Notes under the pieces: model-generated
Database searches by the model: none
Told to the model about the DNA's origin: nothing
Seen by the model: the letters and a program-made list of their open reading frames with translations, nothing else
Shown: one piece after another, positions 14,252 to 44,333 of the stretch
Position numbering within the stretch: position 1 is the first letter of the stretch
Layout of the letters: the number at the start of each line of letters is the position of its first letter
Source: Alphaproteobacteria bacterium
GTDB lineage: Bacteria > Pseudomonadota > Alphaproteobacteria > UBA2966
Reading direction: 5' to 3'
NCBI GenBank assembly: GCA_964291395.2
Contig: OZ219856.1
Coordinates: 864,001-928,000, forward strand
Length of the DNA: 64,000 nucleotides
Position numbers and translations under genes: made by a program

Positions 14252-14788
14252 TCAGGGGGGTCCCAGCATGGCAGCGCATCTTGCAAGTGCGGCATCGACC
14301 GCACGTGCGTAGGCAAGCTCCTCCGGGCTGGCGGGGGAGGAAGGAACGGAAGCTGACCGGCTGGTGCCGAAACTGAACGACATGCCGCCCGCGCTTCCTG
14401 CCGTCGGAGTTCCGCCGCCTCCGACGCGCGCACTGCCGAACTGTGCCTTGGTGACTTCGCCTTCGTCGATCACCAGCTTACAGAGCACGATAATCTCGTC
14501 GCCCTCGCGGCGGCGGTCGATCACGTCGTAGCGCCAGCCGTCGCCGTAACGTTCGTTCAAGGTCCTGACGGTTTCGGAATCGGCGCTATCGGGTTCCGGG
14601 GCCCGTCGGGCCGAAGGCGGTGATGTTGCGGGTGGCTCGGTCGCAGGAGGCGGCGGGGGCGGGTCCGTGAAGGATGGCGCTCCAGCCGTGGATGCCGGTC
14701 CCGGGTAAAGCGCATCCAACTCGCGCCGGTTCCTTGCGAGCATCTCGTCGAATGCCGCCGTCGAACTCGTTCGTTTGTTGGTCGTCAT
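14252..14788 (-). CDS. Hypothetical protein: N-terminal amphipathic helix, Pro-rich linker and degenerate Rad52/Rad22-like domain
   Basis: LNERYGDGWRYDV...IVLCKLVIDEGEVTKAQFG...AYARAVDAALARCAAMLG fits the Rad52/22 core pattern and aligns with extensions on both hydantoinase B proteins. Starts 10 nt after the isochorismatase gene. Confidence 0.75.
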   Translation of the reverse strand: MTTNKRTSSTAAFDEMLARNRRELDALYPGPASTAGAPSFTDPPPPPPATEPPATSPPSARRAPEPDSADSETVRTLNERYGDGWRYDVIDRRREGDEIIVLCKLVIDEGEVTKAQFGSARVGGGGTPTAGSAGGMSFSFGTSRSASVPSSPASPEELAYARAVDAALARCAAMLGPP

Positions 14789-14798
14789 GGCCGAGTCC

Positions 14799-15512
14799 TC
14801 AGCCGTGCAGGCTCGGACCCTGATTCCACCAGCGCTGGAACTCCTCGTTCGCGCGGCCCCTGTGACCGTTCCCGGCCTCGAGCGACTTCAGGTACTGGAG
14901 GACATCGCTGATGGGCACGACATCACCGTATTTGGCGTCGATGTCTAACAGGTTCGCCTCGTGCGGTCCCTGCGCCCGGTCGCCGACGCCGTCGCGCACG
15001 ACGATGGTGTGATAGCCGCATTGCAGCGAGTCTATGGCCGACGCACGGATGCAGCCGCTGGTCGTGCAGCCGGTCATGACGACGGTATCCACACCGTGAG
15101 AGCGGAGGTAGGTGTCGACGTTGGTTTGAAAGAAGGCGCTGGCGTACTTTTTGACGGAGACGAGTTCGCCAGTCTGGGGACGGATCCGATCATCAACCTG
15201 GGTGGTCGGCGATCCTTTCACCAGAATCCCGAGTGACGGGATCTTCTTGATGAATAGTCCCGCGTCCCGGTAATCGTGCTCGTACTCGATGACCGTAAAG
15301 GCGATGGGCAACTGCGCGCCGCGGAACTCTTCGAGCAGTTGTGCCGTCACCGCCAGTTCCTTGGAGAAATCGCCTCCGAGCGGAGATGACGGATCGGTGA
15401 ATCCGTTGATGAAATCGACGATCAACAGTGCCGGGCGGGAGCCGTATCCTGAACGGTCCGCGAAGCCTTTGTCCCGATATTGCTTGAGCGTTTCGTCTCG
15501 CCAGTCGTTCAT
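14799..15512 (-). CDS. Isochorismatase-family cysteine hydrolase (N-carbamoylsarcosine/maleamate amidase-like), copy 1
   Basis: RPALLIVDFINGFT, KKYASAFFQT, TGCTTSGCIRASAID (Asp-Lys-Cys triad), DIDAKYGDV. RBS-like AGAGGGAAG upstream. Confidence 0.9.
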   Translation of the reverse strand: MNDWRDETLKQYRDKGFADRSGYGSRPALLIVDFINGFTDPSSPLGGDFSKELAVTAQLLEEFRGAQLPIAFTVIEYEHDYRDAGLFIKKIPSLGILVKGSPTTQVDDRIRPQTGELVSVKKYASAFFQTNVDTYLRSHGVDTVVMTGCTTSGCIRASAIDSLQCGYHTIVVRDGVGDRAQGPHEANLLDIDAKYGDVVPISDVLQYLKSLEAGNGHRGRANEEFQRWWNQGPSLHG

Positions 15513-15630
15513 AATTCTTCCCTCTGCAACGACACAGTCTAGCGCACGAGGTCACGATCAACGAGGGCGGGGACGCGGCGCGCTTGATCTGCAATTGCCG
15601 TCTCTGTATCAACGAGCCAGAGGGAGGACG

Positions 15631-15723
15631 ATGAAGGTACGGGCGCCGGGACCGCCACCCGGAAAGGGGTTGCCGGCCGTCGGTTCTCCCGCGCGACTTC
15701 TGGACGGGAGGCTCAGCCCATGA
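15631..15723 (+). CDS. Possible 30-aa upstream/leader peptide ([30 protein letters not shown])
   Basis: Purine-rich AGAGGGAGG just before ATG 15631. Its TGA overlaps the next start (ATGA). No homology evidence. Confidence 0.3.
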
Positions 15724-16775
15724 ATACCCCCTACGGAGGTTCTCGAGGCGCCGGTGTGGCGGGCGGGTCGGCCACGGGTCCAGCCTATCGACCGACACCC
15801 CTCGTATCGGGACCGGGCTCGCGCTCGACGACGAGCATCGGGCGTGCGTCGCTGTCTCGCGCGGGCGGCGAGAAGGAAATCTTCTGCGCTTTCGGGATCG
15901 ACGTCGATGCGGTCGCCGGTTGGCTGGGGTCCTATGGAGGTCAGGACTCGCCTTGCGATATCTCCCGGGGCCTGTTCGCCGGCGAAGTCGGCGTGCCGCG
16001 CCTGGTCCGGCTGTTCGACAAGTTGGGTATCCGCACGTCATGGTTCATTCCGGGTCACTCGATCGAGACGTTTCCGGAGCAATGCAAGATGGTTGTCGAT
16101 GCCGGCCATGAGATCGGCATGCACGGCTATTCGCACGAGAATCCAATCGCCATGACGCGGGAGCAGGAGGAGGCGGTTCTCGACAAATGCATCGACCTGA
16201 TCGAGCGGCTTTCGGGTCGGCGCCCGACCGGATACGTGGCGCCGTGGTGGGAGTTCAGCCCCGTGACCAACGAGCTGCTGCTCAGCAGAGGCATCAAGTA
16301 TGACCACAGCCTTATGAACGACGATTTTCATCCCTTTTATGTTCGGGTGGGGGACAGCTGGACGCCGATCGATTACTCCAAGCACCCGAACGAGTGGATG
16401 AAGCCATTGGTTCGTGGTGAAGAGACGGATCTCATCGATATTCCCGGCAGTTGGTATCTCGACGACCTGCCGCCCATGATGTTCATCAAGAGCGCACCGA
16501 ACAGCTTCGGCTGGGTCAAGCCGCGCGATGTGGAGGAGTTGTGGCGCGACCAGTTCGACTGGGTCTACCGCGAGTATGACTACGCGGTCTTCACGATGAC
16601 GATTCATCCCGACGTTTCGGGTCGGCCGCAGGTCCTGCTCATGCTGGAGCGGGTCTACGAATATCTCAGCGGCCATTCGGGCGTGCGGTTCCGCACCTTC
16701 GATGAAATTGCGGACGATTTCCGAAAGCGCCATCCCAGGAACGCGGGCGCGGGAGCCGCGGCGGCGGCGGAGTAG
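15720..16775 (+). CDS. Polysaccharide deacetylase family (H. pylori PgdA/PuuE-like CE4) hydrolase with ~50-aa N-terminal extension
   Basis: [68 protein letters not shown] lies 8 nt before ATG 15720. Confidence 0.9.
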
Positions 16776-17119
16776 TGCGTGCGGTGTGTGGCTTGTGCGG
16801 CATGCTGGGTGGGCCGGGTCACTGGACAGAGACGGCGACGAACGCGGAAGCTTTTCAAGGGCGTGCAAGGTCTCATACCTGGCACCGCGAGCGACAGGAC
16901 CGTGTGCGGCTCGTCAACAGGGTTCTGAGGCACTATGGGTTCAATTTGAGTGATTGGGCGGCGACGTCGTTCGTGCTGCGTAGCCACACCGGCCAGACGA
17001 GTTTGGTCGACAATCTGACCGAGGTTTGGGCGGCGGCGGAGGCGCTCAGCAAGCGGGACTGTGACCCGCTGGACGAAGATCTTTTGACCGCACTGTCCGA
17101 AGACGAAGCGGCGGGATGA
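16775..17119 (+). CDS. Small hypothetical protein with N-terminal CxxC...HW (putative metal-binding)
   Basis: CGLCGMLGGPGHWTE. Overlaps both neighbours, which suggests translational coupling. Alternative start GTG 16784. Confidence 0.75.
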   Translation: MRAVCGLCGMLGGPGHWTETATNAEAFQGRARSHTWHRERQDRVRLVNRVLRHYGFNLSDWAATSFVLRSHTGQTSLVDNLTEVWAAAEALSKRDCDPLDEDLLTALSEDEAAG

Positions 17120-18213
17120 CCGACTACGCCGCGCTCATTCCCGTCAACGTGGTCACCGGGTTCCTCGGCAGCGGCAAGACGACCCTGCTGCAGAAGCTTC
17201 TTGCCTCGCCCCGGCTCAAGGATACGGCGGTGTTGGTCAACGAGTTCGGTGAGGTGGGTCTGGACCATCATCTGTTGGAGAACGTCTCCGAAGGCGCGTT
17301 GCTGCTGGAGAACGGCTGCGTTTGCTGTGCGCTGCGCGAGGATCTCCGGGAGTCCTTGCGCGACCTCTTCTCCCGCCGCGAGCGGGGAGTGATTCCGGAA
17401 TTCCGCCGTGTGGTCATCGAGACCTCGGGCCTCGCGGATCCCGTTCCCATCGCCTACACCGTGCTCACTGAACCGGTGATTCAACATCACTTTCGCCTTG
17501 GCAACATCGTTGCTACCGTCGATGCGTTGAACGGTCGCACGCAACTCGATCGGAACCCCGAATCACTCAAACAAGCGGCCGTGGCCGACCGCCTGATCCT
17601 GACCAAGACCGATCTGGCACCGGCGGGTCAGGTAAATGCGCTGCGCACTGAGCTCCGCCGCCTGAACGGCAGTGCCGTTCTCGTCGATTCGAATGTCGAA
17701 TATCCCGATCCCGAACGCTTGCTCATGGACGACGCCTTCGACCGGGAAGGCCGCGACCGGGACGTCGATCGCTGGTTGCAAGACCGCGTGTCGGGAATGG
17801 AGCCTTCGGAGCATCCGCACGGCTTGCAGGCCCACGACGGAACGTATTCCTTCTCCGTTCGGGTCGATACGCCGCTCGATTGGAGCGCCTTCGGCGTATG
17901 GATGACCATGCTACTCAACCGGCATGGCGACAAGGTATTGCGCATCAAGGGACTACTGAACGTTGCGGGCGTCGCCGCACCGGTGCTCATCAACGGCGTG
18001 CAGCACGTCGTGCATCCTCCCGTGCATCTCGAACGCTGGCCGGACGCGGACCACAGCAGCCGAATCGTCTTCGTCGTGCAGGGTCTATCGCGGGAACGTA
18101 TAGAGGTGTCCCTGAAGGTGTTCAACGCGCTCGCCAATCCCGCGGCGGCGTCTGAGAGCGTGCCGCCGGTCAAGGATCAGACGGCGTTGGAAACAGCTCC
18201 ATCTCGACCGTAG
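17116..18213 (+). CDS. CobW/COG0523 family GTPase (metallochaperone)
   Basis: TGFLGSGKTT, NEFGEVGLD, GCVCC, IETSGLADP, TKTD, and a CobW C-terminal domain (LRIKGL...GVQH). Confidence 0.92.
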   Translation: MTDYAALIPVNVVTGFLGSGKTTLLQKLLASPRLKDTAVLVNEFGEVGLDHHLLENVSEGALLLENGCVCCALREDLRESLRDLFSRRERGVIPEFRRVVIETSGLADPVPIAYTVLTEPVIQHHFRLGNIVATVDALNGRTQLDRNPESLKQAAVADRLILTKTDLAPAGQVNALRTELRRLNGSAVLVDSNVEYPDPERLLMDDAFDREGRDRDVDRWLQDRVSGMEPSEHPHGLQAHDGTYSFSVRVDTPLDWSAFGVWMTMLLNRHGDKVLRIKGLLNVAGVAAPVLINGVQHVVHPPVHLERWPDADHSSRIVFVVQGLSRERIEVSLKVFNALANPAAASESVPPVKDQTALETAPSRP

Positions 18214-19546: not shown

Positions 19547-20077
19547 TCAGGAGCCGCTGTCGGACAAAGAGGTGGTGCGCGGCGGCGGGCGGCGCGGTGT
19601 CCAGCCCACACGGAACGCGCGAACGGCGAAGTGCAGCAGATAGAACAGAATGGCGAGGATCACCAGCAGGACGATGGCGAGCAGTTTCTCGCCGAAAGCC
19701 CCTCCGATGATCTCTTCGCGGCCGATCAAATGCTCCGCCAGCACCTCGACCGCCTGGAGGGTGGCCCCGGCGCAGAAGATCACCGCGATCAGGATCGAAA
19801 TCAGCAAGGTATCGAATACGAGGCCGTCGACTTCCAGTCGGGCGACGCTTCGAATGATATTCCTGCGGAAAGACTGCCAATGGGCGACGGCGTAGCCGAT
19901 CACGCCGACCACCGAAGCGAACCAGAAGATCACGTTGCTGAAGCGGATGTTCGGGATGCTCGCCGTGAGGAATGTTTCGAAGGGTTTATAAAAGTACAGA
20001 AAAATCAACAGGATGATCACGGCGATCAGGGTGATCCAGAACTTGGTGGCGTAGCGTGTGACGGGTTCCCGGGCCAT
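19547..20077 (-). CDS. Uncharacterised 4-TM membrane protein (paralogue of 40343-40822)
   Basis: Four hydrophobic stretches. Shares LIFLYFY.PFE, IFW, HW, GA.LQAV and AFG with 40343-40822. Start ATG 20077 or TTG 20092. Confidence 0.8.
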   Translation of the reverse strand: MAREPVTRYATKFWITLIAVIILLIFLYFYKPFETFLTASIPNIRFSNVIFWFASVVGVIGYAVAHWQSFRRNIIRSVARLEVDGLVFDTLLISILIAVIFCAGATLQAVEVLAEHLIGREEIIGGAFGEKLLAIVLLVILAILFYLLHFAVRAFRVGWTPRRPPPRTTSLSDSGS

Positions 20078-20191
20078 GAGGCGGCGTGCCAATCCTAGAC
20101 GGTCCTACGGCTGCGGGGATCGTAGGCCATAGTCTCTCCAAATCAAACCCCGAGAAGGGAACTGAAGCCTGCGCAGGGTAGGATTCCGCAT

Positions 20192-20369: not shown

Positions 20370-22430
20370 ATGGCTTGCCGACTGGGAATCGACGTTGGCG
20401 GGACGTTTACTGATCTCCTTCTGTTCGATGGCGGAACTGGCGAGATCCACCTACTGAAAACGCCGTCGACTCCGCAGGATCAATCTGTCGGCATTCTCAC
20501 GGGCGTTCGGGATCTCATTTCCCAGACCAAAGTGCGGCCTGCCGACATCCAGGGACTTCTCCATGGCACGACGGTATCGACCAACATCGTGCTGGAGGAA
20601 AAAGGAGCCAAGGTTGGCCTCCTGGTGACGGAGAACTTCGAACAGATACTTCATCTGGCGCGCTCTCAGACTCCCGGACCCCTCGCCGGTTGGATCGTCA
20701 TGCAAAAGCCGGATCCCTTGGCCGACCTCGAACTGACGCGGGGGGTCAAGGAGCGCACGAACGCGCGGGGCGACATCGTGACACCGATGGACGAGGCGCA
20801 CGCCCGAACCCTGATCCAGGAGCTGGTAGACGGCGGCGTCGAGTCGATCACGGTGTCGCTGCTGCATTCTTATGCCAACCCGGCCCACGAACAGCGGTTG
20901 AAGGCGCTCATCCGGGACGTCGCGGGCGACATCCCGGTGTCGCTCTCTTCCGAGATCCTGCCCGAGTTCCGCGAATACGAACGCACGCTCGTCACCGTAA
21001 TGAATGCCTACGTGGGCCCCAGCATGCGCCGCTATCTCAGCCGTTTCGAGGAGAAACTGCGCGGCGTCGAGTTCTCGCCCCATGTCAATATCGTGCGCTC
21101 GGACGGCGGGCTGATGAGTGTCGCCCGTGCTTCCCAGTCTCCGGTGCACACGATGCTGTCCGGACCGGCCGGCGGCGTGTCGGGGGCGGCCTTTCTTGCC
21201 GGCCTCGCGGGCCATCCCAAGGCCCTCGGGTTCGACATGGGCGGGACGTCGACCGACGTCTCTCTGATCCAGGAAGGCAAGCCGACGATCTCGCGCCAGA
21301 CGAGCCTCGGCTACTATCCGATCAAGGTTCCTTCCGTCGAAGTGCACAGCGTCGGTGCCGGTGGGGGATCGATCGCTCACGTGCCGATGACGGGGGCACT
21401 ACGGGTCGGCCCGGAAAGTGCGGGCGCCGTGCCCGGCCCGGCATGCTATGGACGCGGCGGTGACTCCCCGACGGTCACCGACGCCAACGTGGTGCTCGGC
21501 CGCCTGCCTCCTAGCTTGTTGGGGGGCGATATGGCCCTTGACGCCAAGGCGGCCGAGGAGGCGGTCGGGAAGATTGGCCGGGCGCTGGGGCTCGATCTCC
21601 ATCAAGCGGCTCAGGGCATCCTCGACATCGTCAACGAGAACATGTTCGGCGCGTTGCGCTTGGTCACGGTGCAAAAAGGTCTCGATCCCCGTGATTTCGC
21701 GCTGGTGGCCTTCGGCGGCGCCGGTCCGTTGCACGGGAATGCCATGGCCGCGCTCGCCGGTTGCTACCCCGTGATCGTACCCCCAACGCCCGGCGTGCTG
21801 TCCGCGCTCGGCTTCCTGTACTCCGACGTCAAGAACGAATTCGCGCAAACGTTCGTGCGCAATATCGACGATATCGACCCTGGCCAAGTCAACGACATCC
21901 TGACACGGCTGGGGCGCGAGGCCCGGACTTGGCTTCAGGAGGAGGACATCTCGGAGCAGAACCAGGAGCTGCAGTACGAGGCGGACGTGCGTTACTTCCG
22001 CCAGGGCTACGAATTTTCGCTCGAAGTCGACCCGGGATCGTTGATGAACGGGGGCTTGCACGATCTGGAGATGCGCTTCGGAACGGCGCACGAAAGGCTT
22101 TACGGTTTCAAGCTCGAACAGCCCGTGGAGCTTGTTAACTTACGAGCTGTCGGTACGGGCCGGGTGGACAAGGTTGAGTTTCCGGAGTTTCCACTTGAGG
22201 ATCGCGATCCGTCCGCGGCCATTGTCGAGCAGCACAGGGTCTATTTCGGCGGCAATGCCGAGCAGACCGTTATCTATGACCGCAGCAAGCTCCGTGCGGG
22301 CAACCGGATCACGGGTCCCGCCGTCGTGACCCAGAAGGATTCGACCACCATCATTCACCCTGGCCATACCGGGGAGGTCGATCAGTATCTCAACATCCTG
22401 ATTCGCCCTGACGACGACCAATTGCATTGA
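20370..22430 (+). CDS. hyuA: Hydantoinase/oxoprolinase A subunit (ATP-dependent lactamase, caprolactamase CapA/OplA-like)
   Basis: GIDVGGTFTD, HGTTVSTN, LSGPAGG, DMGGTSTD, GAGGGSI, GPESAGA.PGPACY, FGGAGPLH. Confidence 0.92.
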   Translation: MACRLGIDVGGTFTDLLLFDGGTGEIHLLKTPSTPQDQSVGILTGVRDLISQTKVRPADIQGLLHGTTVSTNIVLEEKGAKVGLLVTENFEQILHLARSQTPGPLAGWIVMQKPDPLADLELTRGVKERTNARGDIVTPMDEAHARTLIQELVDGGVESITVSLLHSYANPAHEQRLKALIRDVAGDIPVSLSSEILPEFREYERTLVTVMNAYVGPSMRRYLSRFEEKLRGVEFSPHVNIVRSDGGLMSVARASQSPVHTMLSGPAGGVSGAAFLAGLAGHPKALGFDMGGTSTDVSLIQEGKPTISRQTSLGYYPIKVPSVEVHSVGAGGGSIAHVPMTGALRVGPESAGAVPGPACYGRGGDSPTVTDANVVLGRLPPSLLGGDMALDAKAAEEAVGKIGRALGLDLHQAAQGILDIVNENMFGALRLVTVQKGLDPRDFALVAFGGAGPLHGNAMAALAGCYPVIVPPTPGVLSALGFLYSDVKNEFAQTFVRNIDDIDPGQVNDILTRLGREARTWLQEEDISEQNQELQYEADVRYFRQGYEFSLEVDPGSLMNGGLHDLEMRFGTAHERLYGFKLEQPVELVNLRAVGTGRVDKVEFPEFPLEDRDPSAAIVEQHRVYFGGNAEQTVIYDRSKLRAGNRITGPAVVTQKDSTTIIHPGHTGEVDQYLNILIRPDDDQLH

Positions 22431-22443: not shown

Positions 22444-24750
22444 ATGACAGACCTCAACCCGCCGAGCAAATCGGTCTCCCTGGATGACCTTCTGAGGGCC
22501 AACAAGGACCAGTTCGACCAGCTCTTCGCCACGCAAGTGAGGGAAGTGGGGCTGGTCGGCGTCAGTCACCGCCCCGCGACAGAGGAGGATCTCATGTCGC
22601 CGAGTATGCGGACGTGGCACGACGGCGACGGCGAAGATGTGACGGCGTTTCTCAACACGCGTTTTGGGTCGGATTGGTCGTCAGAGGTTGTCGAGCACAA
22701 GGTTGAGCGCGGCGCGGTGACCGTTCTTTGCAAACTGACCGTCGACGGTGTCTCGAAGATGCAGTTCGGCTCGGCTCGTGCGAACGGCGACGAAGGCAAG
22801 GCCTTGCGGCACGCGACCAACCAGGCCCTGAAAGCCTGTGCCGCGATGTTTGCTGAAGCGGCTGTGCCCGTGGATCCGCCTGCGGCGCCTGCGCCGGAGG
22901 AACAGCTGGAGCGGCAGGGACGGGAGATGCTCGATGCCCCGGCACCCCGTGCGCCGCACCCGGCGGAGCGTCCCGGCACGCTTGATACGATCACGCTCGA
23001 CCTCATTGAGAACGCTCTCCGCAACGCCCGTCACGAAATGGACGCGGTGCTGTTCCGCTCGGCCATGTCCCCGGTTATCCGGGAACAGCACGATGAATTC
23101 CCGATGATCACAGATGGCAAGGGGCGCATGATCGTGGGGCAGTTCGGCTCCTATATCCCGGAGATGTTGAAGGAGCAGAACTTCCGGCTACTCCCCGGCG
23201 ACGTGATTCTGCAGAGCGATCCGTTCAAGTGCGGCGGCGCCATCAGCCACATCAACGACTGGATGGTGCTGGTGCCGATCTTCTACGAGAACGAAGTCAT
23301 CGGCTTCAGTTCGATGTTCGGGCACATGATGGACGTGGGGGGGCCCGTGCCCGGCAGCATGCCGACGGCGGCGACTTCGGTGTTCGGCGAAGGCCTGCGC
23401 ATTCCACCCATCAAGATCTATGACGGCGGCGCGCTCAATAAGGGTGCGCTCGACCTCATCATGAATAACACCCGCACCCCGGAGATGAACTTCAGCGATC
23501 TCATGGCGATCATCGCGGGCTGCCGGACTGGTGAGAAGCGCGTGATCGAGATCTGCGATCGCTTCGGCAAGGATATCTACCGCCAAGCGTGCGAGGCGTT
23601 GCTGGAGCGCACCAATCGCGCCATGTGCCAGCTGATCGTGCAGAATCTGCCTGAGGAGCCGCAGTCGTTCGAGGATTACGTGGACGATGACGGTCTCGGC
23701 AACGGGCCTTTCAAGCTCAAGCTGACCGTCTGGCGCGAGGGCGAGCACGCCTATTTCGATTGGACGGGCACATCGGCCCAGGCCCCGGGGCCGATCAACT
23801 TCTACCTCCACGAAGGCATGTTCAAGATGTTCATCGGGGTCTACATGATCATGGTGTTCGACCCCCAAATCCTGTTCAACGATGGTTTCTACGACCTGAT
23901 CCACGTGACCCTGCCCAAGGGCTCGCTAGTACATCCCAACTTCCCGGCACCTCTCGGCTGTCGGACCCATGCGCTGTCCCGCCAGTTCGACGTTCTGGGC
24001 GGCGCGCTCAGCAAGAAGGCTCCGGAAATGGCGACCGCTGCGGGCTACGGATCGAGTCCGCATTTCCTGTACTCGGGCACCGACGCAGACGGCCGCCAGT
24101 TCCAGCTCATGGAGATTCTCTACGGCGGTATTCCCGGCCGGCCGGTTGGCGACGGCATGGACGGGCATTCTTGGTGGCCGCTGTTCGAGAACATCCCCAG
24201 CGAATACCTCGAGAGCTACTACCCGATGCTGATCGAGAGCTACGGCAGCATCTCGGATACCGGCGGCGCGGGCCTCCATCGCGGCGGCAACGGTGTGGAG
24301 AAAGTCTACCTGTTGCTCGAAGAGGGAGAGATCTCCATCCACGACGACCGGCATGAATCGCGGCCCTGGGGCATCTTGGGCGGGGCGCCCGGTGTCTGCT
24401 CGGAGAAGTGGTTGGTACGCAAGGACGGGACGCGCGAGCCGCTCCCTTCCAAGATCGACAATGTGAAGGTGCGAAACGGAGACCGCATCGTCTTCCGTAC
24501 GGCGGGCGGCGGTGGATGGGGGGATGCGCTCGAGCGTGAATCCGTGAAGGTCCGTAACGATGTCGCGCGCGGTCTGTTGTCGCGCGAGGCGGCGCGGGAG
24601 AGCTACGGCGTTGTCATCTCAGAGAGCTTCGATGTCGACGAGACGGCGACGCGGGATTTGCGTGAAACCATGCGGGCTGGACGGCCGCCGTTGCCCTTGT
24701 TCGATTTTGGCAGGCAACCGACGTGGGGCGGAACCACCGCTTCTGCGTAG
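22444..24750 (+). CDS. hyuB: Hydantoinase/oxoprolinase B subunit (CapB-like) with a ~180-aa N-terminal extension containing a Rad52-like domain
   Basis: Catalytic part begins at LDLIENALRNAR.EM...SPVIREQHD, then DPF.CGG.ISH.ND, GHMMDVGG, EGLRIPP, TAGGGGWGD. The extension contains FLNTRFGSDWS...VLCKLTVDG...ALKACAAMF. Confidence 0.92.
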   Translation: MTDLNPPSKSVSLDDLLRANKDQFDQLFATQVREVGLVGVSHRPATEEDLMSPSMRTWHDGDGEDVTAFLNTRFGSDWSSEVVEHKVERGAVTVLCKLTVDGVSKMQFGSARANGDEGKALRHATNQALKACAAMFAEAAVPVDPPAAPAPEEQLERQGREMLDAPAPRAPHPAERPGTLDTITLDLIENALRNARHEMDAVLFRSAMSPVIREQHDEFPMITDGKGRMIVGQFGSYIPEMLKEQNFRLLPGDVILQSDPFKCGGAISHINDWMVLVPIFYENEVIGFSSMFGHMMDVGGPVPGSMPTAATSVFGEGLRIPPIKIYDGGALNKGALDLIMNNTRTPEMNFSDLMAIIAGCRTGEKRVIEICDRFGKDIYRQACEALLERTNRAMCQLIVQNLPEEPQSFEDYVDDDGLGNGPFKLKLTVWREGEHAYFDWTGTSAQAPGPINFYLHEGMFKMFIGVYMIMVFDPQILFNDGFYDLIHVTLPKGSLVHPNFPAPLGCRTHALSRQFDVLGGALSKKAPEMATAAGYGSSPHFLYSGTDADGRQFQLMEILYGGIPGRPVGDGMDGHSWWPLFENIPSEYLESYYPMLIESYGSISDTGGAGLHRGGNGVEKVYLLLEEGEISIHDDRHESRPWGILGGAPGVCSEKWLVRKDGTREPLPSKIDNVKVRNGDRIVFRTAGGGGWGDALERESVKVRNDVARGLLSREAARESYGVVISESFDVDETATRDLRETMRAGRPPLPLFDFGRQPTWGGTTASA

Positions 24751-28810: not shown

Positions 28811-28910
28811 AGGATTGGCAGCGAGGCTTCGCGGTAATATACCGGGATAATGAGTCTGTGGTATTGGTTCAAATCCAACGGTGGAATTCCAAGGCCAGGG
28901 GTGCGACACG

Positions 28911-30188: not shown

Positions 30189-30228
30189 CCCTGGCACGAT
30201 CAAGCCCGGGGAACCGAGGAACTGAATT

Positions 30229-30657: not shown

Positions 30658-30704
30658 GACCGATCTTCCGGGTTCGGTTGCGGTCGGTACGAGGAGGCGA
30701 GTTC

Positions 30705-31982: not shown

Positions 31983-32011
31983 CGGGCGTTGGGTTTTCGC
32001 GAGGATCGGGC

Positions 32012-32440
32012 ATGGGTGGGACCATCACGCTGCACGGACGCCCCATCTCCAAGGGCGTGGCCGAAGGCGAAGCGATCGTCACGGACAAGGCACTGTCGTT
32101 CATCGCCGCCGCGATCACCAACGACGAGGGGATCGTGCGCATGGACGGCCATCCCCTCCAAGGGAGGTCGGTCATGGACAAAGTTCTGGTCTACGACACC
32201 GACATCTACTCAACCGGCGCGGGGCTCAGCTTTTACACCAAATGGAAGATCAACCAGTCGACGCCGCGCGCGATTATCTGCCGCGAGATGCACAACATCG
32301 GCGGCGGTTTTACGATCTACACGGGCGTACCGTCGATCGACCGCATCCAGGAAGGCCTGCCCTGGGATCTCATCGGCGACGGCGACTGGGTCAAGGTCGA
32401 CTCCGTGCAGGGCATCATCGAGGTGACGAAGAGGTCCTAA
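32012..32440 (+). CDS. Aconitase X small (swivel) subunit, copy 2
   Basis: C-terminal part of ORF 31421-32440 (MGGTITLHGRPISKGVAEGEAIV...GDWVKVDS). Same length (429 nt) as copy 1. Confidence 0.85.
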   Translation: MGGTITLHGRPISKGVAEGEAIVTDKALSFIAAAITNDEGIVRMDGHPLQGRSVMDKVLVYDTDIYSTGAGLSFYTKWKINQSTPRAIICREMHNIGGGFTIYTGVPSIDRIQEGLPWDLIGDGDWVKVDSVQGIIEVTKRS

Positions 32441-32464
32441 GGGGATGGAGCGCGCCATGGCGCT

Positions 32465-33376
32465 TCACTTCCGCAGTACCGGGATGACGTCTTGGGCGAT
32501 GGTCTCGAACATGGGGCGATCGGATTCCAGAACAGGGTAGTCGAGCATGAACTCCGAGATGCCCAGTTCCCGGAACCGCTCCACCGCTTCGACGAAGGCG
32601 TCCTTGGACGCGTAGTACGGTATGGCGTCGCTAGCGTCCCGCGCCGGTTTGTCGAGCAGCACATAGGACCGGCGAATCTCCCCGGGGTCGCGCCCGACGG
32701 CATGGCAATGCTCTTCGAGAATCTCGATGCGTTCGCGCGTTTCCGCAAGTTGCCCTTCGAGCGTTCCGGCGCGTCCAATGCTGTTCCAGATGTCTGCAAA
32801 CCTGGCCACGTGCATGAGCATGTTCCGCCCAATGGTCCCAACGGCAATGGGCGGCCGGGGCTGCTGAATGGACCGGGGAATCATCACTGCATCCCGGATG
32901 GTGTAGTAGGAGCCGTCGTAGCTGGTGGTCTCCTGCCGCAACAGCAGGTCGATGATCTCGACGTATTCTCCGAACCGTGCAACCCGCTCCTCCAGTGGCC
33001 AGTTCGCCAATCCCATCATGCCGTATGAGGGGTCCGACGTGAGTCCGATCCCGAGGCCGATGACAAGACGCCCGGCGGAGATCTGATCCACTGTGAGCGC
33101 CTGACGCGCCAATATGGCCGGATTGCGCAACGGTATCTGCGTGACATACGTCGCGAGCTTGATGTGCGAGGTCTCCCGCGCGGCGGCCGCAAGGGTCGTC
33201 CATCCTTCCAGCCATGGATCCGTAGGCGAGGGTTTCGGGTATCGCCAGTCGACAAAATGGTCCGCGGTGGCCACCAGATCGAAGCCGAGTTCCTCCACGT
33301 GCCGGAAGCGGGCAAGGAGCTCCTCCCCCGGCACATTGGGCAGAAGGAGAACCTGAAACTCCAACTTGTGATTCAC
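32465..33376 (-). CDS. LLM class flavin-dependent oxidoreductase
   Basis: VEELGFD...ADHF, LEGWTTLAA, RNPAILARQALTVDQIS.GRL.IGLG.G, QQPRPPI. Confidence 0.9.
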   Translation of the reverse strand: MNHKLEFQVLLLPNVPGEELLARFRHVEELGFDLVATADHFVDWRYPKPSPTDPWLEGWTTLAAAARETSHIKLATYVTQIPLRNPAILARQALTVDQISAGRLVIGLGIGLTSDPSYGMMGLANWPLEERVARFGEYVEIIDLLLRQETTSYDGSYYTIRDAVMIPRSIQQPRPPIAVGTIGRNMLMHVARFADIWNSIGRAGTLEGQLAETRERIEILEEHCHAVGRDPGEIRRSYVLLDKPARDASDAIPYYASKDAFVEAVERFRELGISEFMLDYPVLESDRPMFETIAQDVIPVLRK

Positions 33377-33379
33377 GGG

Positions 33380-38593: not shown

Positions 38594-38766
38594 CGCATCC
38601 TCCCCTTGTGTTGTCGCTGCCCATTCGTTGAGCCGGATCCGGAGGCAATCGCGTCGCGGTCCTGAAATCCGGCGAAACCGAGTCGTTGGTACCCATATTA
38701 CCCGTGCCGGGATGATACATTAGGTCGATTGGATTGGGAACGCCGTGTGCCGGGGAGGATGGTGCC

Positions 38767-40218
38767 ATGAGCGTATTGATCAAGAACGGTCGTGTCGTCA
38801 CGGCGTCGGACGACTATCACGCGGACATCTTCGTCAGCGACGAGACCGTCGATGTGATCGGCCGTGACCTCGTGATCGAGGCGGACACCGTCATCGACGC
38901 GTCCGGGAAGCTCGTGATCCCCGGCGGCGTCGATCCCCACACGCACATGGAGATGCCGTTCGGCGGCACACAGACTTCGGATACATTCGAGACCGGAACG
39001 AAGGCGGCAGCGTTCGGCGGCACCACTTGTATCATCGACTTCGCCATACAATTCAAAGGTGAATCGACCATCGCGGCGCTCGACAAATGGCATGCCAAGG
39101 CCGCCGGGCAGGCCTCCGTCGACTACGGCTTTCACATGATCATCACCGACATGCCGGAGCACCGGACGCCGGAGATGCGCCGCCTCTCGGACGAAGGGGT
39201 GACCAGCTACAAGCTGTTCATGGCGTATCCCGGCGTGTTGCTGTCCGATGACGGCACGATTTTCCGCGCGATGCGCAAGGCGGGGGAAGACGGGACGCTC
39301 GTTTGCATGCATGCGGAGAACGGCGTCGTCATCGATGAGCTGGTCAAAATTGCGTTATCGGAAGGCCATATCGAGCCCAAGTACCACGCTTTGACGCGCC
39401 CTACCCGATTGGAGGCGGAGGGCGTACACCGGGCTCTCTCCATCGCCGAGGTGGCTCGCGCGCCGGTCTATATCGTGCACCTCAGCAGCTACGACGCGCT
39501 TCAGGAAATCCGCTTGGCGCAGGCGCGCGGCGTGATGGCGCACGCGGAGACCTGCCCGCAGTACCTCTTGCTTGACGTCTCGGCCTACGACGAGCCGGGG
39601 TTTGACGGTTCTAAGTTCGTGCTGACGCCGCCGCTTCGCGAGAAATGGAATCAGGAGGAATTGTGGCGTGGATTGCGCGGTGGCGCGCTCCATGTGATTT
39701 CCACCGACCACTGCCCGTTCTGCGTGAAGGAGCAGAAGGAACTCGGCCGCGACGACTTCAGCAAGATCCCCAACGGCGGCCCGGGCGTCGAGAACCGTAT
39801 GAGCCTGATCTACCACTATGGTGTCGGCAAGGGGTACATCGACCTCAACCGTTTCGTCGAGTTGACCTCGACGTCGCCCGCCAAGATCTTCGGCCTGTTC
39901 CCGAAGAAGGGGACCATCGCGGTCGGCAGCGACGCCGACATCGTCATCTTCGATCCCGAGCACGAAGAGACCATCAGCTACTACAACCCCCGGACCCACC
40001 ACATGAACATCGACTACACCGCTTACGAGGGCTTCGCCGTAAAGGGGTTCACGGAAACCGTGTTGTCACGGGGCAAGCTGGTGATCGACAAAGGTCAATA
40101 CGTGGGCCGCCCGGGTTATGGTCGGTTCGTCAAGCGCGGTCCCTACGGCGGCATCTACAAGCCTGAAGCGGCCGGTAACATCACCACGCCCGCCGCCATG
40201 CGCCTCGCTGCGGAATAG
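38767..40218 (+). CDS. hydA: Dihydropyrimidinase / D-hydantoinase (copy 2)
   Basis: PGGVDPHTHMEMPFGG, SYKLFMAY, HAENG, ETCPQYL, STDHCPF, KIPNGGPGVENR. GGGGAGG precedes ATG 38767. Confidence 0.94.
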   Translation: MSVLIKNGRVVTASDDYHADIFVSDETVDVIGRDLVIEADTVIDASGKLVIPGGVDPHTHMEMPFGGTQTSDTFETGTKAAAFGGTTCIIDFAIQFKGESTIAALDKWHAKAAGQASVDYGFHMIITDMPEHRTPEMRRLSDEGVTSYKLFMAYPGVLLSDDGTIFRAMRKAGEDGTLVCMHAENGVVIDELVKIALSEGHIEPKYHALTRPTRLEAEGVHRALSIAEVARAPVYIVHLSSYDALQEIRLAQARGVMAHAETCPQYLLLDVSAYDEPGFDGSKFVLTPPLREKWNQEELWRGLRGGALHVISTDHCPFCVKEQKELGRDDFSKIPNGGPGVENRMSLIYHYGVGKGYIDLNRFVELTSTSPAKIFGLFPKKGTIAVGSDADIVIFDPEHEETISYYNPRTHHMNIDYTAYEGFAVKGFTETVLSRGKLVIDKGQYVGRPGYGRFVKRGPYGGIYKPEAAGNITTPAAMRLAAE

Positions 40219-40342: not shown

Positions 40343-40822
40343 TTACGACGTCACGTCACTCCGCGGTGGCGGGGGGCGGACGACCTTCAGCAGCCAATAG
40401 ATGATGCAGAACACGCCCGTCAGGATGACCAGCGCGACTACGGCGGCAAGCCGCTTGCCGAAGGCGGCGTCAAGCGCGTAGTCGGGCTGCAGCAGAAAGA
40501 CGCAGAGGATCTGCACGGCCTGAAGTGCGGCACCGCCGCTCAACAGGATCGCCGTGAACGTCGAGCCCCTGAGGGAATTCAACACCATCGCCTCTATGCT
40601 CTGCTGCTGGACGATGTGGAGCCGATAGGCCCGCCAATGGAACGCGCAAAATCCGATGATTCCAATGACCACGGCGGCCCAGAAAATGGCGTTGTCGTAG
40701 CCCAAACCGTAGAAGACGATGTTGAACAGGTCTTCAAACGGTTGATAAAAATAGAGAAATATCAATACGATAATGAACAGGATAAAGCCGACCAGCGTCC
40801 AGAACCATTGCCATCCGGTCAT
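40343..40822 (-). CDS. Uncharacterised 4-TM membrane protein (paralogue of 19547-20077)
   Basis: Four TM segments and shared motifs LIFLYFYQPFE, AIFW, FHW, GAALQAV, AAFG. RBS GAGGA. Confidence 0.8.
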   Translation of the reverse strand: MTGWQWFWTLVGFILFIIVLIFLYFYQPFEDLFNIVFYGLGYDNAIFWAAVVIGIIGFCAFHWRAYRLHIVQQQSIEAMVLNSLRGSTFTAILLSGGAALQAVQILCVFLLQPDYALDAAFGKRLAAVVALVILTGVFCIIYWLLKVVRPPPPRSDVTS

Positions 40823-40920
40823 CGCTCAATCCTCATCCGCCGACGCCCCCGCGCAGCGGCACCGTTACGTGACGGTTTGCCTTATATCTCATGGTCACGT
40901 CGCTCGACAAACGACACTCG

Positions 40921-42012
40921 CTACGCCGCGGCTTCGGGAATCGCGATGAAGAGCAAGATCGCGTAGATCACGAAAAACGCCGCGTCTTTTGCCATGGGAA
41001 TGGTCTGATTGTCGGTTTCCTTGGCGGCGATCAGTGAGATGATCTCCAGAACGAAGAAGACGACGGCGAGGGAGAAGAAGGGCCAGATGGTGCTCCACCA
41101 GGAAAGTTCGTCCGGCACCGGAACTTCCTGAATGACCTCCCAGATGAGCAGCAGGATGGGCAGGACGATCAGGTAGCCGTAGGCGACGAGGAAGCGATAG
41201 CGGGTGACCTTCCGGTCCAGCAGCCAAAAGATGAAGAAGAACAGTGCGATGTGAAGGAAATCCCAGAACAGCGATGCGTAGGTCTCGCCGGCGTCGGAGC
41301 CGTGGAGGTTCAGGAATCCCAAAATCAGCAAGACGAGCAAGGCGTCGCAGAATATCCACTCGCGGGCGGATTCCGCCGGTGTCTTGACGCTCCATCCTCG
41401 TGTTGCCTTGTCGAACAGGAGAACCAGGGCGACTGCAAAGCCGGCGGGATAGAACAGGTACAGCATGAGAGCGAATTGTTGCGCCTTTTCCACGTAAATC
41501 CAGTTCAGTAGTAGGAATGCGGCTCCCAGGAGGAGGAGACCCACCAGCCGGGTCGCCGAAGGTGTTTCGATCGTACGCGCTGGAACCGCATGCGCGGCGT
41601 CTGACTGCGATGTCTGGACCGCGCTGCCGTGACCTGCGGTATCCCTGGGAGCGGTTCCCGCGCTCCGTGCAAACAGGAATACGACGAAACCCATGACGCC
41701 GATGCCGACGACCGCCAGCATCACGATGAAGAAGGTAAGGGATCGAGGATCGGTTTCCGCGCCGGCTGCCGCCGGCCGAAGCAGGACGTCCGGGAACAAT
41801 TGCCACGCGAGAAGGGCGACGGCGATCACCAGCACGATCAATCCCAGGAGGAGTTCGACCCAATGAGCTTCGGCGACGGACCCCGTCCCGGAGGTCGGGG
41901 ATTGACGAGACCGGCGCGTGTAGCTCGCGATCAGGTAGATCAGGAATGCCAGGACGCCGACGACGGCGATCGCGGCCATGATCTCGAGGAATGCGACGGA
42001 CCGGCTATCCAA
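40921..42012 (-). CDS. Uncharacterised polytopic membrane protein (~10 TM)
   Basis: 363-aa ORF with many hydrophobic helices, no family I recognise, co-directional with hyuAB copy 2. Confidence 0.75.
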   Translation of the reverse strand: MDSRSVAFLEIMAAIAVVGVLAFLIYLIASYTRRSRQSPTSGTGSVAEAHWVELLLGLIVLVIAVALLAWQLFPDVLLRPAAAGAETDPRSLTFFIVMLAVVGIGVMGFVVFLFARSAGTAPRDTAGHGSAVQTSQSDAAHAVPARTIETPSATRLVGLLLLGAAFLLLNWIYVEKAQQFALMLYLFYPAGFAVALVLLFDKATRGWSVKTPAESAREWIFCDALLVLLILGFLNLHGSDAGETYASLFWDFLHIALFFFIFWLLDRKVTRYRFLVAYGYLIVLPILLLIWEVIQEVPVPDELSWWSTIWPFFSLAVVFFVLEIISLIAAKETDNQTIPMAKDAAFFVIYAILLFIAIPEAAA

Positions 42013-42146
42013 GGGACTCTGGATCTTGGTGTGATCCTATTCCACGCCTCGGTCAGGGCGAGGCACGTCCTCCAAAGGGTTCTTGCCCGCCGAAGCCTCG
42101 GCAGCAAGGGCGACGGAGCGTCGGATCGGATGGGGGGCGAAATGCA

Positions 42147-44333
42147 TTATGCCGTTCGCAAGTCCTGGGAGCGTTCGGTCGCTTCCAACAGGGTGGCAGC
42201 GCATCGGCGGAGGCTGTCGTCGGCGGCCGCTTCGAACTGCTGGCCGACGGAGAGGCCGTTGCCCCCGTTGGTGCGACCGGTTTCACGGGCACGGGACCCG
42301 TTGGCCTTGACCTCGCCGACCACGGTGACGCCACCGCCGTTCCGTTCGTGGCTCAATATCTCAAAGCTCCAGGCGGAACCGAACGTCTCGTGCAGCCGAC
42401 GGACGATCTGTGAGAGGTCGGGTTCTGCCCGTGGGGGCGCCGGAGAAAGTGAAGCAGCCGGCGATGGTTTGGGTGTCTCGACGGCGGCCGGCGCGGGACC
42501 CGGTGTCGGTTCGGGTGGCTGTGCCGCAGATGCTGCAGCGGACGCCGGAGCAACTTCGGCAGTGCTGGGCGATGTCCGCATGTCGCGGCGCAGGGCTTCC
42601 GTCTCCGGCTCATTGACCGTTTCCGACGCCGGATCGATAACCACGCCGTAGGCCTGCCGGGCGTGCTCCAAGGTGCAGAAGTCGTCGAGGACGTCCTCCA
42701 GCACCTCGGCCGGGGGTCGGTCGAGCGGGTCGCCATATCCGCCGCCGCACGGGCCATAGAACACGTGCACGTCTCCGGCTTGCAGCCGCATTCCGGAGAA
42801 CTTCGCCGGCATCTCCCTGCGCTCGCTCGGATTGCCGATATTGAACAGCTCGACGCGCCCCGTGGCGCCTTCATGACCGCCGAAAATGCCCCAGGGCACG
42901 TCCTCGTGACGCTCGTTCTCGTGAGTGATGAAGCCATCCGTCAGCATGCGTTGTTCCTTGACGCATCCGATGCCGCCGCGGTACCGGCCTGCGCCGGGCA
43001 TGACGTCGTCGCGCAACTCGTAGCGATCGCAGATCATGGGCAGATGGACGGCCAGGTCCTCCAGCGGGTTGTTGCGTGTGTTGGCCATCAAGTTGTCGAT
43101 GCTGTCGGGACCGTCGGAGCGCGGCCGCCCGCCATAGGAACCTTCGTTGACCTCCAGGAACACCCAGTAGTCGCCGCTGGGCCGGACGCCGGAGTAGGCG
43201 ACGAAAGAGAGACTTGCGGAGCTTCCCGCGATGATGTCGTCGGGCAGGACGGGCGCCAGCGCCTTGTAGATCAGGTCGATCACCCGGTTGATCTGGGCGA
43301 AGCGCGCTTCCGCGGCGGCGGGGAACTCGGGGTTGTAGATCGATCCCTTTGGCGCGAAGACGTTGATCGGCCGGAACGACCCCTGATTGGAGGGCACCTT
43401 GATCTCCGACGTCTCGGCATCCAGGAGGAGCGATCGAATGGCGCAGAAGCAAGCCACCTTCGTCGATCCCTCGAAAGGAACGTTGAAACCGGTCTCGACC
43501 TGGTCGGCGGAGCCCGTGAGATCGATCTCGATGCCGTCGCCCTTCACCCGCACGCAGACCTTGATGGGCAGGCGTACTCCGCGGTTCTTGCCGTCGTCGT
43601 CCAGGAAACCCTCGGCATGGTATTCGCCATCGGGGATGGCCGCGATGCGCTGGCGCAGGACGCGTTCGGTATAGTCCATGAGCTGGCGGGTGGCGGTGAG
43701 AACCGTGTCCTTGCCGTAGCGATCGAGGAGTTCCCCGAAGCGGCGTACACCCAGGCGCGCCGAAGCGATCTGGGCTTCCAGGTCGGCTTGCAGTTCGTTC
43801 GCCGCGCGGCTGTTGCGGCCGATGTACTCCCACAGGGCGTCGTTACGCTCGCCCTCCTCATAGAGCTTGGTGCCGGCGAACAGCATGCCTTCGGCATAGA
43901 CGTCCGGAATGTCGATGATCAGCCCCGGCGTGGCCGCCCCGATGTCGAGGTGGTGGGCGGTGTTGGCGGCGAAACCGACATGCTCGCCTTTGTAGAAGAT
44001 GGGGATGACGATGGCGATGTCGGGCGAGTGGCTGGCACCGTGGTAGGGATGGTTGTGGATCACCACGTCGCCGTCGTTCCACACGCCACCCTGCAGCGTC
44101 TCGGCGATACCTTCCAGGTAACCGGGGATGGAACCGATGTGGAGCGGCGTCGACTCCGATTCGCAAAGCGTGTTGAATTCCGTGTCGAATAGGCCGGCGC
44201 CAAGGTCCTGCGATTCCCGGATGATCGAGGAGAACGACATGCGGAAGAGAATGTGCCCCATCTCCTCCGCGATCGTATCGAGTGCGCCGCTGATCACCTG
44301 CAGCGTGATGGGATCGAGTTCTTGGTCAGGCAT
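42147..44333 (-). CDS. hyuB: N-methylhydantoinase B-like subunit with C-terminal Pro-rich linker and Rad52-like domain
   Basis: LDPITLQVI...EEMG...SSIIRESQD, NHPYHGASHSPD, HHLDIGA, GPCGGGYGDP. The tail reads IVRRLHETFGSAWSFEI...AAADDSLRRCAATLL. Confidence 0.92.
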   Translation of the reverse strand: MPDQELDPITLQVISGALDTIAEEMGHILFRMSFSSIIRESQDLGAGLFDTEFNTLCESESTPLHIGSIPGYLEGIAETLQGGVWNDGDVVIHNHPYHGASHSPDIAIVIPIFYKGEHVGFAANTAHHLDIGAATPGLIIDIPDVYAEGMLFAGTKLYEEGERNDALWEYIGRNSRAANELQADLEAQIASARLGVRRFGELLDRYGKDTVLTATRQLMDYTERVLRQRIAAIPDGEYHAEGFLDDDGKNRGVRLPIKVCVRVKGDGIEIDLTGSADQVETGFNVPFEGSTKVACFCAIRSLLLDAETSEIKVPSNQGSFRPINVFAPKGSIYNPEFPAAAEARFAQINRVIDLIYKALAPVLPDDIIAGSSASLSFVAYSGVRPSGDYWVFLEVNEGSYGGRPRSDGPDSIDNLMANTRNNPLEDLAVHLPMICDRYELRDDVMPGAGRYRGGIGCVKEQRMLTDGFITHENERHEDVPWGIFGGHEGATGRVELFNIGNPSERREMPAKFSGMRLQAGDVHVFYGPCGGGYGDPLDRPPAEVLEDVLDDFCTLEHARQAYGVVIDPASETVNEPETEALRRDMRTSPSTAEVAPASAAASAAQPPEPTPGPAPAAVETPKPSPAASLSPAPPRAEPDLSQIVRRLHETFGSAWSFEILSHERNGGGVTVVGEVKANGSRARETGRTNGGNGLSVGQQFEAAADDSLRRCAATLLEATERSQDLRTA

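Follow-up and report, generated by a model that had tools for sequence, protein, structure and literature searches.

A 64,000-nucleotide stretch of an alphaproteobacterial genome (GTDB lineage UBA2966; assembly GCA_964291395.2, contig OZ219856.1, positions 864,001 to 928,000), referred to here as the window, carries three paralogous copies of a small domain that is very probably a distant, cut-down member of the Rad52 superfamily, with a topology like that of the double-stranded RNA-binding domain (dsRBD), which the Rad52 core also has. The copies are found in a stand-alone protein (S-class), at the N-terminus of one HyuB subunit, HyuB1 (N-class), and at the C-terminus of another, HyuB2 (C-class), all within an island of catabolic genes that also encodes a flotillin-like protein. 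It is plausible, with the chances about evenly balanced, that this core is a protein-protein assembly module bringing HyuAB and an amidase together at the membrane, next to the flotillin and an importer. The three genes and their cores are the following.

14252-14788, minus strand: S-class stand-alone gene P0001, 178 amino acids, with an N-terminal helix (the hook helix), a Pro/Ala linker and a Rad52-like core with a Gly-rich hairpin insert
14267-14575, minus strand: Rad52-like core of P0001, residues 72-174, with a helix, three strands, an inserted hairpin and a long helix, from the AlphaFold2 model and structural matches
22444-24750, plus strand: HyuB1 gene P0002 (N-class), 768 amino acids, with a hook helix, linker, Rad52-like core, Pro/Ala linker and Hydantoinase_B domain
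22630-22860, plus strand: Rad52-like core of HyuB1, residues 63-139, from the PF04098 match, the model and VIA-align
42147-44333, minus strand: HyuB2 gene P0003 (C-class), 728 amino acids, with a Hydantoinase_B domain, Pro/Ala linker and Rad52-like core, and without a hook helix
42180-42419, minus strand: Rad52-like core of HyuB2, residues 639-718, from module BLASTP and the genome profile search

In the translations of the open reading frames (ORFs) the module segments span residues ~70-176 of P0001, ~66-137 of P0002 and ~639-716 of P0003. A first-pass annotation of this DNA had already described three homologous segments at these places, and the ORFs do translate to the strings that it quoted. 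BLASTP comparisons of the module regions gave E values of 7e-17 (P0001 vs P0002), 8e-7 (P0001 vs P0003) and 1e-6 (P0002 vs P0003). The likeness is far beyond chance, because a family profile searched against the six-frame translation of the 4.16-Mb genome matches exactly these three places (E 1e-64, 1e-28 and 3e-15), and the segments are paralogues. The Hydantoinase_B domain (PF02538) occupies residues 181-694 of P0002 (E 2.5e-144, 482 bits, model positions 1-518 of 519) and residues 7-536 of P0003 (E 1.2e-155, 519 bits, model positions 1-519 of 519), in agreement with the annotated placement of the module, N-terminal on HyuB1 and C-terminal on HyuB2. With catalytic parts that are 32% identical over 587 columns, HyuB1 and HyuB2 are two divergent HyuB paralogues bearing the extra segment at opposite ends, also as first described. 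The Pro/Ala-rich linkers noted beside each copy are visible in the translations and are predicted to be disordered in P0001 (residues 33-62) and P0002 (residues 36-60), where the predicted local distance difference test score (pLDDT) of the structure models falls below 50. A feature that goes beyond the first-pass annotation is a helix common to the N-termini of P0001 (residues 8-27) and P0002 (residues 13-34), preceding the linker.

The Rad52 likeness is detectable in sequence. On the whole of P0002, Rad52_Rad22 (PF04098) is the only family matched apart from those of HyuB (14.7 bits, E 0.03), and on residues 1-145 the score is 19.0 bits (E 0.0014), with residues 62-137 aligned to positions 33-127 of the 153-position model, whose curated cut-off is 20.3 bits. 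P0001 and P0003 gave no match to this model at E<=1; the close relative P0223 exceeds the cut-off with 23.3 bits, and the relative P0230 reaches 19.5 bits. Among 69 module sequences, taken from the window and from 33 related loci, PF04098 is the commonest Pfam family and the only one to recur, with six of the 69 matching at E<=0.1 (best 3e-4). Its alignments are always collinear, at model positions ~29-129, and no dsrm-type (dsRBD) Pfam match was found among these 69 sequences and the three whole proteins. Landmarks common to the modules and to true bacterial Rad52 proteins are L-N-x-x-F-G-x-x-W before the first strand and an Ala/Leu-rich last helix. Among the protein language-model neighbours, family names attach to two clusters, a viral one in which 11% of the members carry PF04098 (0.89) and a Sak one (0.86); both serve as leads only. 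True PF04098 genes were identified in 7 of 301 sampled genomes (a count that takes in one unpublished genome, G240), at other places; in this genome, where the scan scored two candidates, none was found.

Predicted structures point in the same direction. The AlphaFold2 model of P0001, based on a 40-row alignment, has a mean pLDDT of 74 (90-94 in the core blocks) and consists of a helix (residues 72-81), three strands (85-95, 98-107 and 112-121), a small hairpin (130-139) and a second helix (155-174). Compared by VIA-align with one representative each of 48,161 PDB clusters, this S-class model matches two chains of human RAD52 at Z 10.2 (root-mean-square deviation, rmsd, 4.6; 86 residues aligned) and Z 10.0, yeast Rad52 at Z 9.6 (rmsd 2.7, 79 aligned) and yeast Mgm101 at Z 9.4, and these are the only chains with Z>=8; the next row is a dsRBD at Z 7.6, about 2 Z below the Rad52 family, and phage Sak scores Z 6.1. 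The N-class module was modelled from a 69-row alignment (mean pLDDT 70); this second model shares the helix/three-strand/helix core and matches RAD52 at Z 8.9, Mgm101 at 8.4 and yeast Rad52 at 8.3 (rmsd 2.1, 74 aligned). The modules superpose on RAD52 residues ~64-161, which comprise a helix, a three-strand antiparallel sheet and a long helix. Foldseek, one of the checks that the first-pass annotation had suggested, found nothing at E<=0.001 in the PDB, where human RAD52 fills the first 12 rows (E 2.3e-3 to 7.4e-3); among the predicted viral structures of BFVD it ranks a phage protein named 'Rad52/59/22' first (E 1.4e-4; 109 columns at 23% identity), with many Rad52 and Sak3 names after it. 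The Rad52/22 core that had been read from the sequence is supported by a weak but specific PF04098 signal and by RAD52, yeast Rad52, Mgm101 and phage Rad52 as the top structural matches.

Parts of Rad52 are missing from the modules. Model positions 1-32 of PF04098, which cover the N-terminal helix and hairpin, are without counterpart; a low-confidence Pro/Ala-rich linker directly precedes the first core helix, and in HyuB2 the core likewise follows directly on the linker. The loss of the upstream DNA-binding hairpin, claimed at first reading, is therefore confirmed, as those positions are unmatched and a linker stands there. In Rad52 proteins this helix and beta-hairpin build the inner groove for single-stranded DNA (ssDNA), where Arg55 and Tyr65 of human RAD52 are located. 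The helices downstream of the Rad52 core are also missing from the modules; these post-core helices, together with the N-terminal hairpin, contribute to ring contacts in Rad52.

A conserved basic pair, Lys152 and Arg153 in human RAD52, lies on the last core helix, and a K-R pair is found there in four bacterial Rad52 members. At the first position of this pair a basic residue occurs in 19 of 24 modules of the N-class, in 15 of 17 of the C-class and in 3 of 28 of the S-class; for the second position the counts are 7 of 24, 14 of 17 and 10 of 28, respectively. The variable K-R motif that had been noted earlier thus holds for the S-class, whereas the HyuB-fused classes are mostly basic at the first position. 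Net charge was considered as a test of DNA binding and set aside as not discriminating: the modules have means of -1.1 (N), -1.7 (S) and +0.35 (C), and the cores of four true bacterial Rad52 proteins are slightly acidic too (-1 to -2), with +3 to +6 in their N-terminal part. Five residues are invariant in 69 of 69 modules (L70, W78, V94, L129 and C132 in P0002 numbering), mostly at core positions, and the invariant Cys occupies the site of an Ala in bacterial Rad52 proteins. Arginines R75, R80, R92, R94 and R162 are conserved in the S-class.

The module family is unnamed and has no Pfam model. P0001 belongs to a family of unnamed proteins of 140-220 amino acids without a Pfam domain, with 135 matches at E<=0.001 among 1538 candidates (120 of the 135 listed). 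An exhaustive search of 1.84 billion cluster representatives with the family profile gave 471 matches at E<=0.001, of which 158 reach 1e-10 and 63 reach 1e-30 (the best 150 of 471 listed), and the family is widespread in soil and marine Alpha- and Gammaproteobacteria. When ten longer family matches were scanned, five had an N-terminal module followed by Hydantoinase_B, one an isochorismatase domain (P0221), one a weak TPR match and three no family. A search for longer proteins gave 230 at E<=0.001, and the best 120 of these 230 all carry PF02538 and no other partner domain; the C-terminal module of P0003 found 13 proteins, again all with PF02538. The source records name the longer relatives 'N-methylhydantoinase B'. 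The idea of a portable tag is therefore right only in part: Hydantoinase_B is the sole partner of the module in 120 of the 120 listed longer proteins. P0221 (347 amino acids) had suggested, by the Rosetta-stone argument, that the hook helix binds the isochorismatase; this idea was rejected, as its middle part is Arg-rich and out of frame and it is probably a frameshifted call across two genes; P0203, P0264 and P0245 have a similarly frameshifted or chimeric look and were not accepted as domain fusions.

Judging from these sequences, there appear to be three real architectures, namely hook-linker-core (S), hook-linker-core-linker-HyuB (N) and HyuB-linker-core (C). Across relatives, core and hook are conserved, and the linkers vary in length and sequence. 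The window also contains a third Hydantoinase_B gene (49092-50762, minus strand, 556 amino acids) with neither hook nor module, and a module-free HyuB subfamily, 52-57% identical to HyuB1, is common in the class, including in genomes with the island.

The short elements outside the core were located as follows.

14708-14767, minus strand: hook helix of P0001, residues 8-27, F-D-x-L-L-x-x-N-x-x-x-L-D-x-L-Y, pLDDT 83-90
22480-22545, plus strand: hook helix of HyuB1, residues 13-34, from BLASTP and the model
14366-14410, minus strand: Gly-rich loop motif GSAGG-x-x-F-S-F-G, P0001 residues ~127-141, found in the S-class alone, where it follows the last strand and precedes the last helix
L063 731-940, L064 737-946 and L067 2672-2884: mini-protein ORFs of 69-70 amino acids after the isochorismatase gene

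The hook is a conserved amphipathic N-terminal helix of the S and N classes, with the consensus S-x-[FL]-D-[DE]-[LM]-L-x-x-N-[KR]-x-x-[FL]-D-x-[LI]-[FY]; in the family alignment F13 and L17 of P0001 are invariant and D14, N20 and Y28 nearly so. Near-invariant residues of the Gly-rich motif are G131, S132, G135, F138 and G141. In five sampled genomes (L063-L067), the isochorismatase gene is followed by a tail that ends in the motif S-G-T-A-N-G-I-P-F and has no core; in L063, L064 and L067 the core-less ORFs are complete, with hook, linker and Gly-rich motif, and from L065 and L066 only the motif-bearing tail was recovered. In locus L068, the HyuB1 gene (9646-11496, beside the flotillin gene) runs from hook and linker straight into the catalytic domain, again without a core. 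Hook and Gly-rich motif are thus separable from the core. The S-like gene of L068 adjoins a small membrane protein and not an isochorismatase. In addition, a weak hook-like match in another genome (G073:C1:1583983-1584150; profile positions 1-57, E 7.7e-4) starts an open frame of 828 amino acids 15 kb from HyuB1 and may represent another hook-only protein.

In 38 of 38 loci, taken from records of metagenome-assembled genomes of Alpha- and Gammaproteobacteria, the S-class gene is immediately preceded by the isochorismatase gene. The isochorismatase ends in the motif D/E-F-x-R-W-W (EFQRWW in the window) in 31 of 38 related loci, counted as F-x-x-W-W with a crude choice of ORFs in which most misses are in the wrong frame; the second isochorismatase of the window (46462-47181) is without this tail. 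The F-x-R-W-W tail may be a third candidate docking peptide.

The gene that follows HyuB1 encodes the flotillin-like protein.

24858-27674, plus strand: flotillin-like protein P0123, 938 amino acids, with an N-terminal membrane segment, an SPFH domain, a duplicated coiled coil and a C-terminal domain

Its Band_7 (SPFH) match covers residues 47-181 (E 2.7e-12), and with a weak FloT match of 33.9 bits against a cut-off of 700 the protein is not an equivalog of FloT. A tandem duplication of ~170 residues in the coiled coil (~231-399 vs 431-599, 46% identity, E 6e-30) brings the protein to about twice the usual flotillin length. The order of HyuB1, flotillin and the ATPase of an ATP-binding cassette (ABC) transporter is preserved in all 14 loci that cover this DNA (L004, L022, L031, L037, L053-L061 and L068). 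Of 401 evenly sampled genomes of the class, 19 (15 of 308 genera) were found to carry the module, and a search with the C-terminal 239 residues of the flotillin (E<=1e-10) identified this domain in 18, all of them among the 19; thus 18 genomes have both, one has the module only and none the flotillin only, in large searches that scored part of the first-look candidates. The sole module-only genome, G352, is an assembly of 810 contigs. The flotillin was also identified in five of five gammaproteobacterial module carriers. The nearest HyuB free of hook and core (64% identity, genome G184) begins at the catalytic domain, and this flotillin was not found in the G184 genome. The classes are distributed over the 19 carrier genomes as follows.

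N, S and C: G000, G006 and G161
S and C with a hook-only HyuB1: G188
N and full S: G050, G164, G223, G300 and G304
N and a core-less gene after the isochorismatase: G261, G381, G064, G320 and G001
N only: G073, G243 and G369 (one genus)
Partial data: G081 and G352

N-class HyuB1 and the flotillin are the constant part of the system, and the S and C classes are additions. The idea that the S-class core exists in order to pair with the C-class core was supported only by half: the four genomes with a C-class gene (G000, G006, G161 and G188) all have a full S-class gene, and the genomes with the mini-S version have no C-class gene, but five genomes have full S without C. No recombination genes were found near the modules in the window or in 38 + 10 loci, where the neighbours are catabolic enzymes, transporters and the flotillin.

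In the favoured reading, the core would probably self-associate, as ring-forming Rad52 relatives do. Flexible Pro/Ala-rich tethers of 40-50 residues connect it to HyuB1 and HyuB2, the two divergent ATP-dependent subunits, and in the stand-alone protein to two short peptide motifs. Core, hook helix and short motifs would bring HyuAB and the isochorismatase-type amidase together in one multi-enzyme assembly, which would sit at the membrane beside a flotillin scaffold and the ABC importer. The first-pass annotation had favoured interaction over DNA repair, and the catabolic and flotillin context speaks for this choice. The analysis shows the homology of the copies, their fold, the lost hairpin, the conserved gene context and the co-occurrence; the interaction itself, including self-association, the partners and the membrane location, is what we infer. 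A four-copy complex prediction for residues 66-178 of P0001 scored 0.13 and 0.09 against a mark of 0.42 and argues neither for nor against self-association. Several observations weigh against an assembly built on the core. Since the N-terminal hairpin and the post-core helices are missing, ring formation is not simply transferable from Rad52 to the modules. The complete core-less ORFs of L063, L064 and L067 and the core-less HyuB1 of L068 count on the same side, and the five genomes with an S-class core and no C-class partner indicate that cross-class pairing of cores is not obligatory. The genomes in which module and flotillin co-occur are related and not independent, and the whole island co-occurs as well. 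Finally, the basic residue that is mostly kept in the N and C classes would leave room for contact with nucleic acids.

The missing ring contacts would fit a monomeric adaptor that serves one partner (the flotillin C-terminal domain, HyuA or a small membrane protein) and has only the fold in common with Rad52. Many monomeric binding domains have the helix/three-strand/helix arrangement of dsRBDs, which score Z 7-8 against the models, and the hook helix, Gly-rich motif and F-x-R-W-W tail look like short docking motifs; this adaptor nevertheless appears unlikely, as association of like with like is the simplest explanation for three paralogous copies in a single island, the characterised proteins of the Rad52 superfamily all form rings or filaments as far as is known, and no signal specific to a partner was obtained. 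Still less probable is that the Rad52 likeness is convergent, the module being an independent dsRBD-like fold that acts as an intramolecular regulatory or solubility domain of HyuB. Several results do weigh against common descent with Rad52: for the N-class model a dsRBD at Z 8.0 comes within 1 Z of, and is effectively tied with, the Rad52 rows; the family profile found no Rad52 chain among PDB sequences, with eight weak matches (best E 0.14, nucleoporin Nsp1) that all fall on the N-terminal helix region; hhalign of the modules against four true alphaproteobacterial Rad52 proteins was not significant (P ~0.01-0.015, probability 3-4%), being collinear over 83 columns only under greedy settings and with a thin Rad52 alignment of four rows; and the PF04098 scan of the own genome missed all three modules, with only two candidates scored, the best at 11.4 bits elsewhere. 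On the other side stand the recurrent and always collinear Rad52_Rad22 matches, over the cut-off in one relative, the distance of ~2 Z between the Rad52 family and dsRBDs for the S-class model, the Rad52 and Sak clusters as the named language-model neighbours, and the stand-alone version on a 45-residue tether, which is hard to fit to an intramolecular regulator.

Retained binding of ssDNA or RNA, by which the module would anchor the enzymes at the nucleoid or on their own mRNA, or serve in regulation or repair, is harder still to credit. In fold and sequence the closest relatives are proteins of single-strand annealing, a basic residue usually stands at the Rad52 Lys position in the N and C classes, and the conserved S-class arginines could be read in this light; however, the basic N-terminal helix-hairpin that holds the positive charge of true bacterial Rad52 is absent, the S-class has lost the basic pair, and the setting is catabolic and membrane-linked, free of recombination genes. 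The assembly reading itself may be extended to a flotillin-organised 'metabolosome', a compartment of an undescribed kind in which a Rad52 ring domain would have come from a recombination protein, lost the DNA groove and become a multivalent hub. Ring hub, hook and docking peptides would then cross-link dimeric HyuAB and the amidase into a cluster attached to the membrane, either held by an extra-tall flotillin cage or lying under it, beside the importer; this picture is doubtful, and we regard it as a good deal less probable than the assembly module as such.

The other genes of the island in the window are the following.

14799-15512, minus strand: isochorismatase-family amidohydrolase (Pfam), directly upstream of P0001 with a 10-base gap, carrying the C-terminal EFQRWW
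15720-18213, plus strand: PuuE-like deacetylase-fold hydrolase, Cys-rich ORF of 114 amino acids and CobW-type GTPase, a conserved trio of the island
19547-20092, minus strand: small membrane protein, 181 amino acids, kept beside HyuA1, paralogue of 40343-40822
20370-22430, plus strand: HyuA1 (Hydantoinase_A), partner subunit of HyuB1
27692-28810, plus strand: ABC-transporter ATPase, after the flotillin gene, an order kept in L053-L061 and L068
35370-38593, minus strand: ABC permeases and solute-binding protein, which adjoin the flotillin operon in relatives
38734-40218, plus strand: D-hydantoinase/dihydropyrimidinase (TIGR02033, 605 bits vs a 393-bit cut-off)
40343-42012, minus strand: two membrane proteins downstream of HyuB2, of 363 (40921-42012) and 159 amino acids (40343-40822), in conserved order
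44370-46445, minus strand: HyuA2, partner subunit of HyuB2
46462-47181, minus strand: second isochorismatase-family gene, at the head of the HyuA2-HyuB2 operon

With its ABC importer and RutB/BiuH-like amidases, the island looks, from its gene content, like a pathway for the uptake and breakdown of a hydantoin- or pyrimidine-like N-heterocycle. Most alphaproteobacterial loci have all three module genes in one cluster, composed of flotillin, HyuB1 and HyuA1 on the minus strand, a small membrane protein, the CobW GTPase, 114-residue ORF and PuuE-like hydrolase on the minus strand, the isochorismatase, S-class gene, HyuA2, HyuB2 and two membrane proteins on the plus strand, and ABC permeases. In the window and in genome G006, the HyuA2-HyuB2 operon lies apart and has its own second isochorismatase. 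The genes at 28881-35347, between the flotillin-ABC ATPase operon and the ABC permeases, look like an insertion into the island, since these two blocks adjoin in relatives; they comprise two AcnX genes, a swivel-domain gene, a luciferase-like monooxygenase gene and one for an OYE (old yellow enzyme)/pyridine-nucleotide oxidoreductase. The ORF of 114 amino acids (16775-17119, plus strand) belongs to no family, has an N-terminal C-G-L-C-G and is in every case flanked by the PuuE-like hydrolase and the CobW-type GTPase; its product may be an accessory for metal delivery. The small multi-pass membrane paralogues at 19547-20092 and 40343-40822 likewise belong to no family, and each is kept beside one HyuAB operon.

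To our knowledge, domains of the Rad52 superfamily have been described only in DNA recombination and repair. A literature search found no paper linking Rad52 or flotillin with hydantoinase, and nothing relevant on Rad52-like scaffolds. If the favoured reading is true, a Rad52 core without its groove, attached to catabolic enzymes, would be a clear reuse of a recombination fold. The clients of bacterial flotillins have so far been poorly defined, and strict co-inheritance of the module with a dedicated long flotillin would offer concrete, soluble clients that are testable by genetics.

The known systems closest to this one each share some of its features. With the Rad52/Rad22 proteins (human RAD52, yeast Rad52, Mgm101, phage Sak and Sak3; PF04098 and PF06378), the modules have the core fold and its landmarks in common, but they are tethered to ATP-dependent amidohydrolase subunits in a flotillin-linked catabolic island and are not part of a recombination module. 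With dsRBDs they share the helix/three-strand/helix topology, and the Z values of 7-8 reflect no more than this; Rad52 chains score higher, clearly so for the S-class. The HyuA-HyuB pairs of the island, which stand next to an isochorismatase-family amidase and a D-hydantoinase, resemble those of caprolactamase (CapA/CapB) and of the creatinine/N-methylhydantoin pathway, in which the ATP-dependent N-methylhydantoinase HyuA/HyuB works with an N-carbamoylsarcosine amidase; the HyuAB proteins of the window score far under the NCBIfam equivalog cut-offs (247 vs 1000 bits), and terminal Rad52-like modules are not a known part of the described HyuA/HyuB and CapA/CapB enzymes. SPFH scaffolds are known with operon partners, as in FloT/FloA, stomatin-NfeD and HflK/C-FtsH. 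P0123, with its SPFH domain and flotillin-type coiled coil, is similarly encoded beside its presumed client; unlike in those systems, it is about twice as long, and its putative clients are soluble catabolic enzymes rather than a protease or a kinase. An analogy is provided by 2-oxoacid dehydrogenase complexes, whose E2 cores bear small binding domains on long Ala/Pro-rich linkers, in that small units on such tethers recruit enzymes to an oligomeric core, although the modules have no relation to them in sequence or fold and possess no lipoyl arm.

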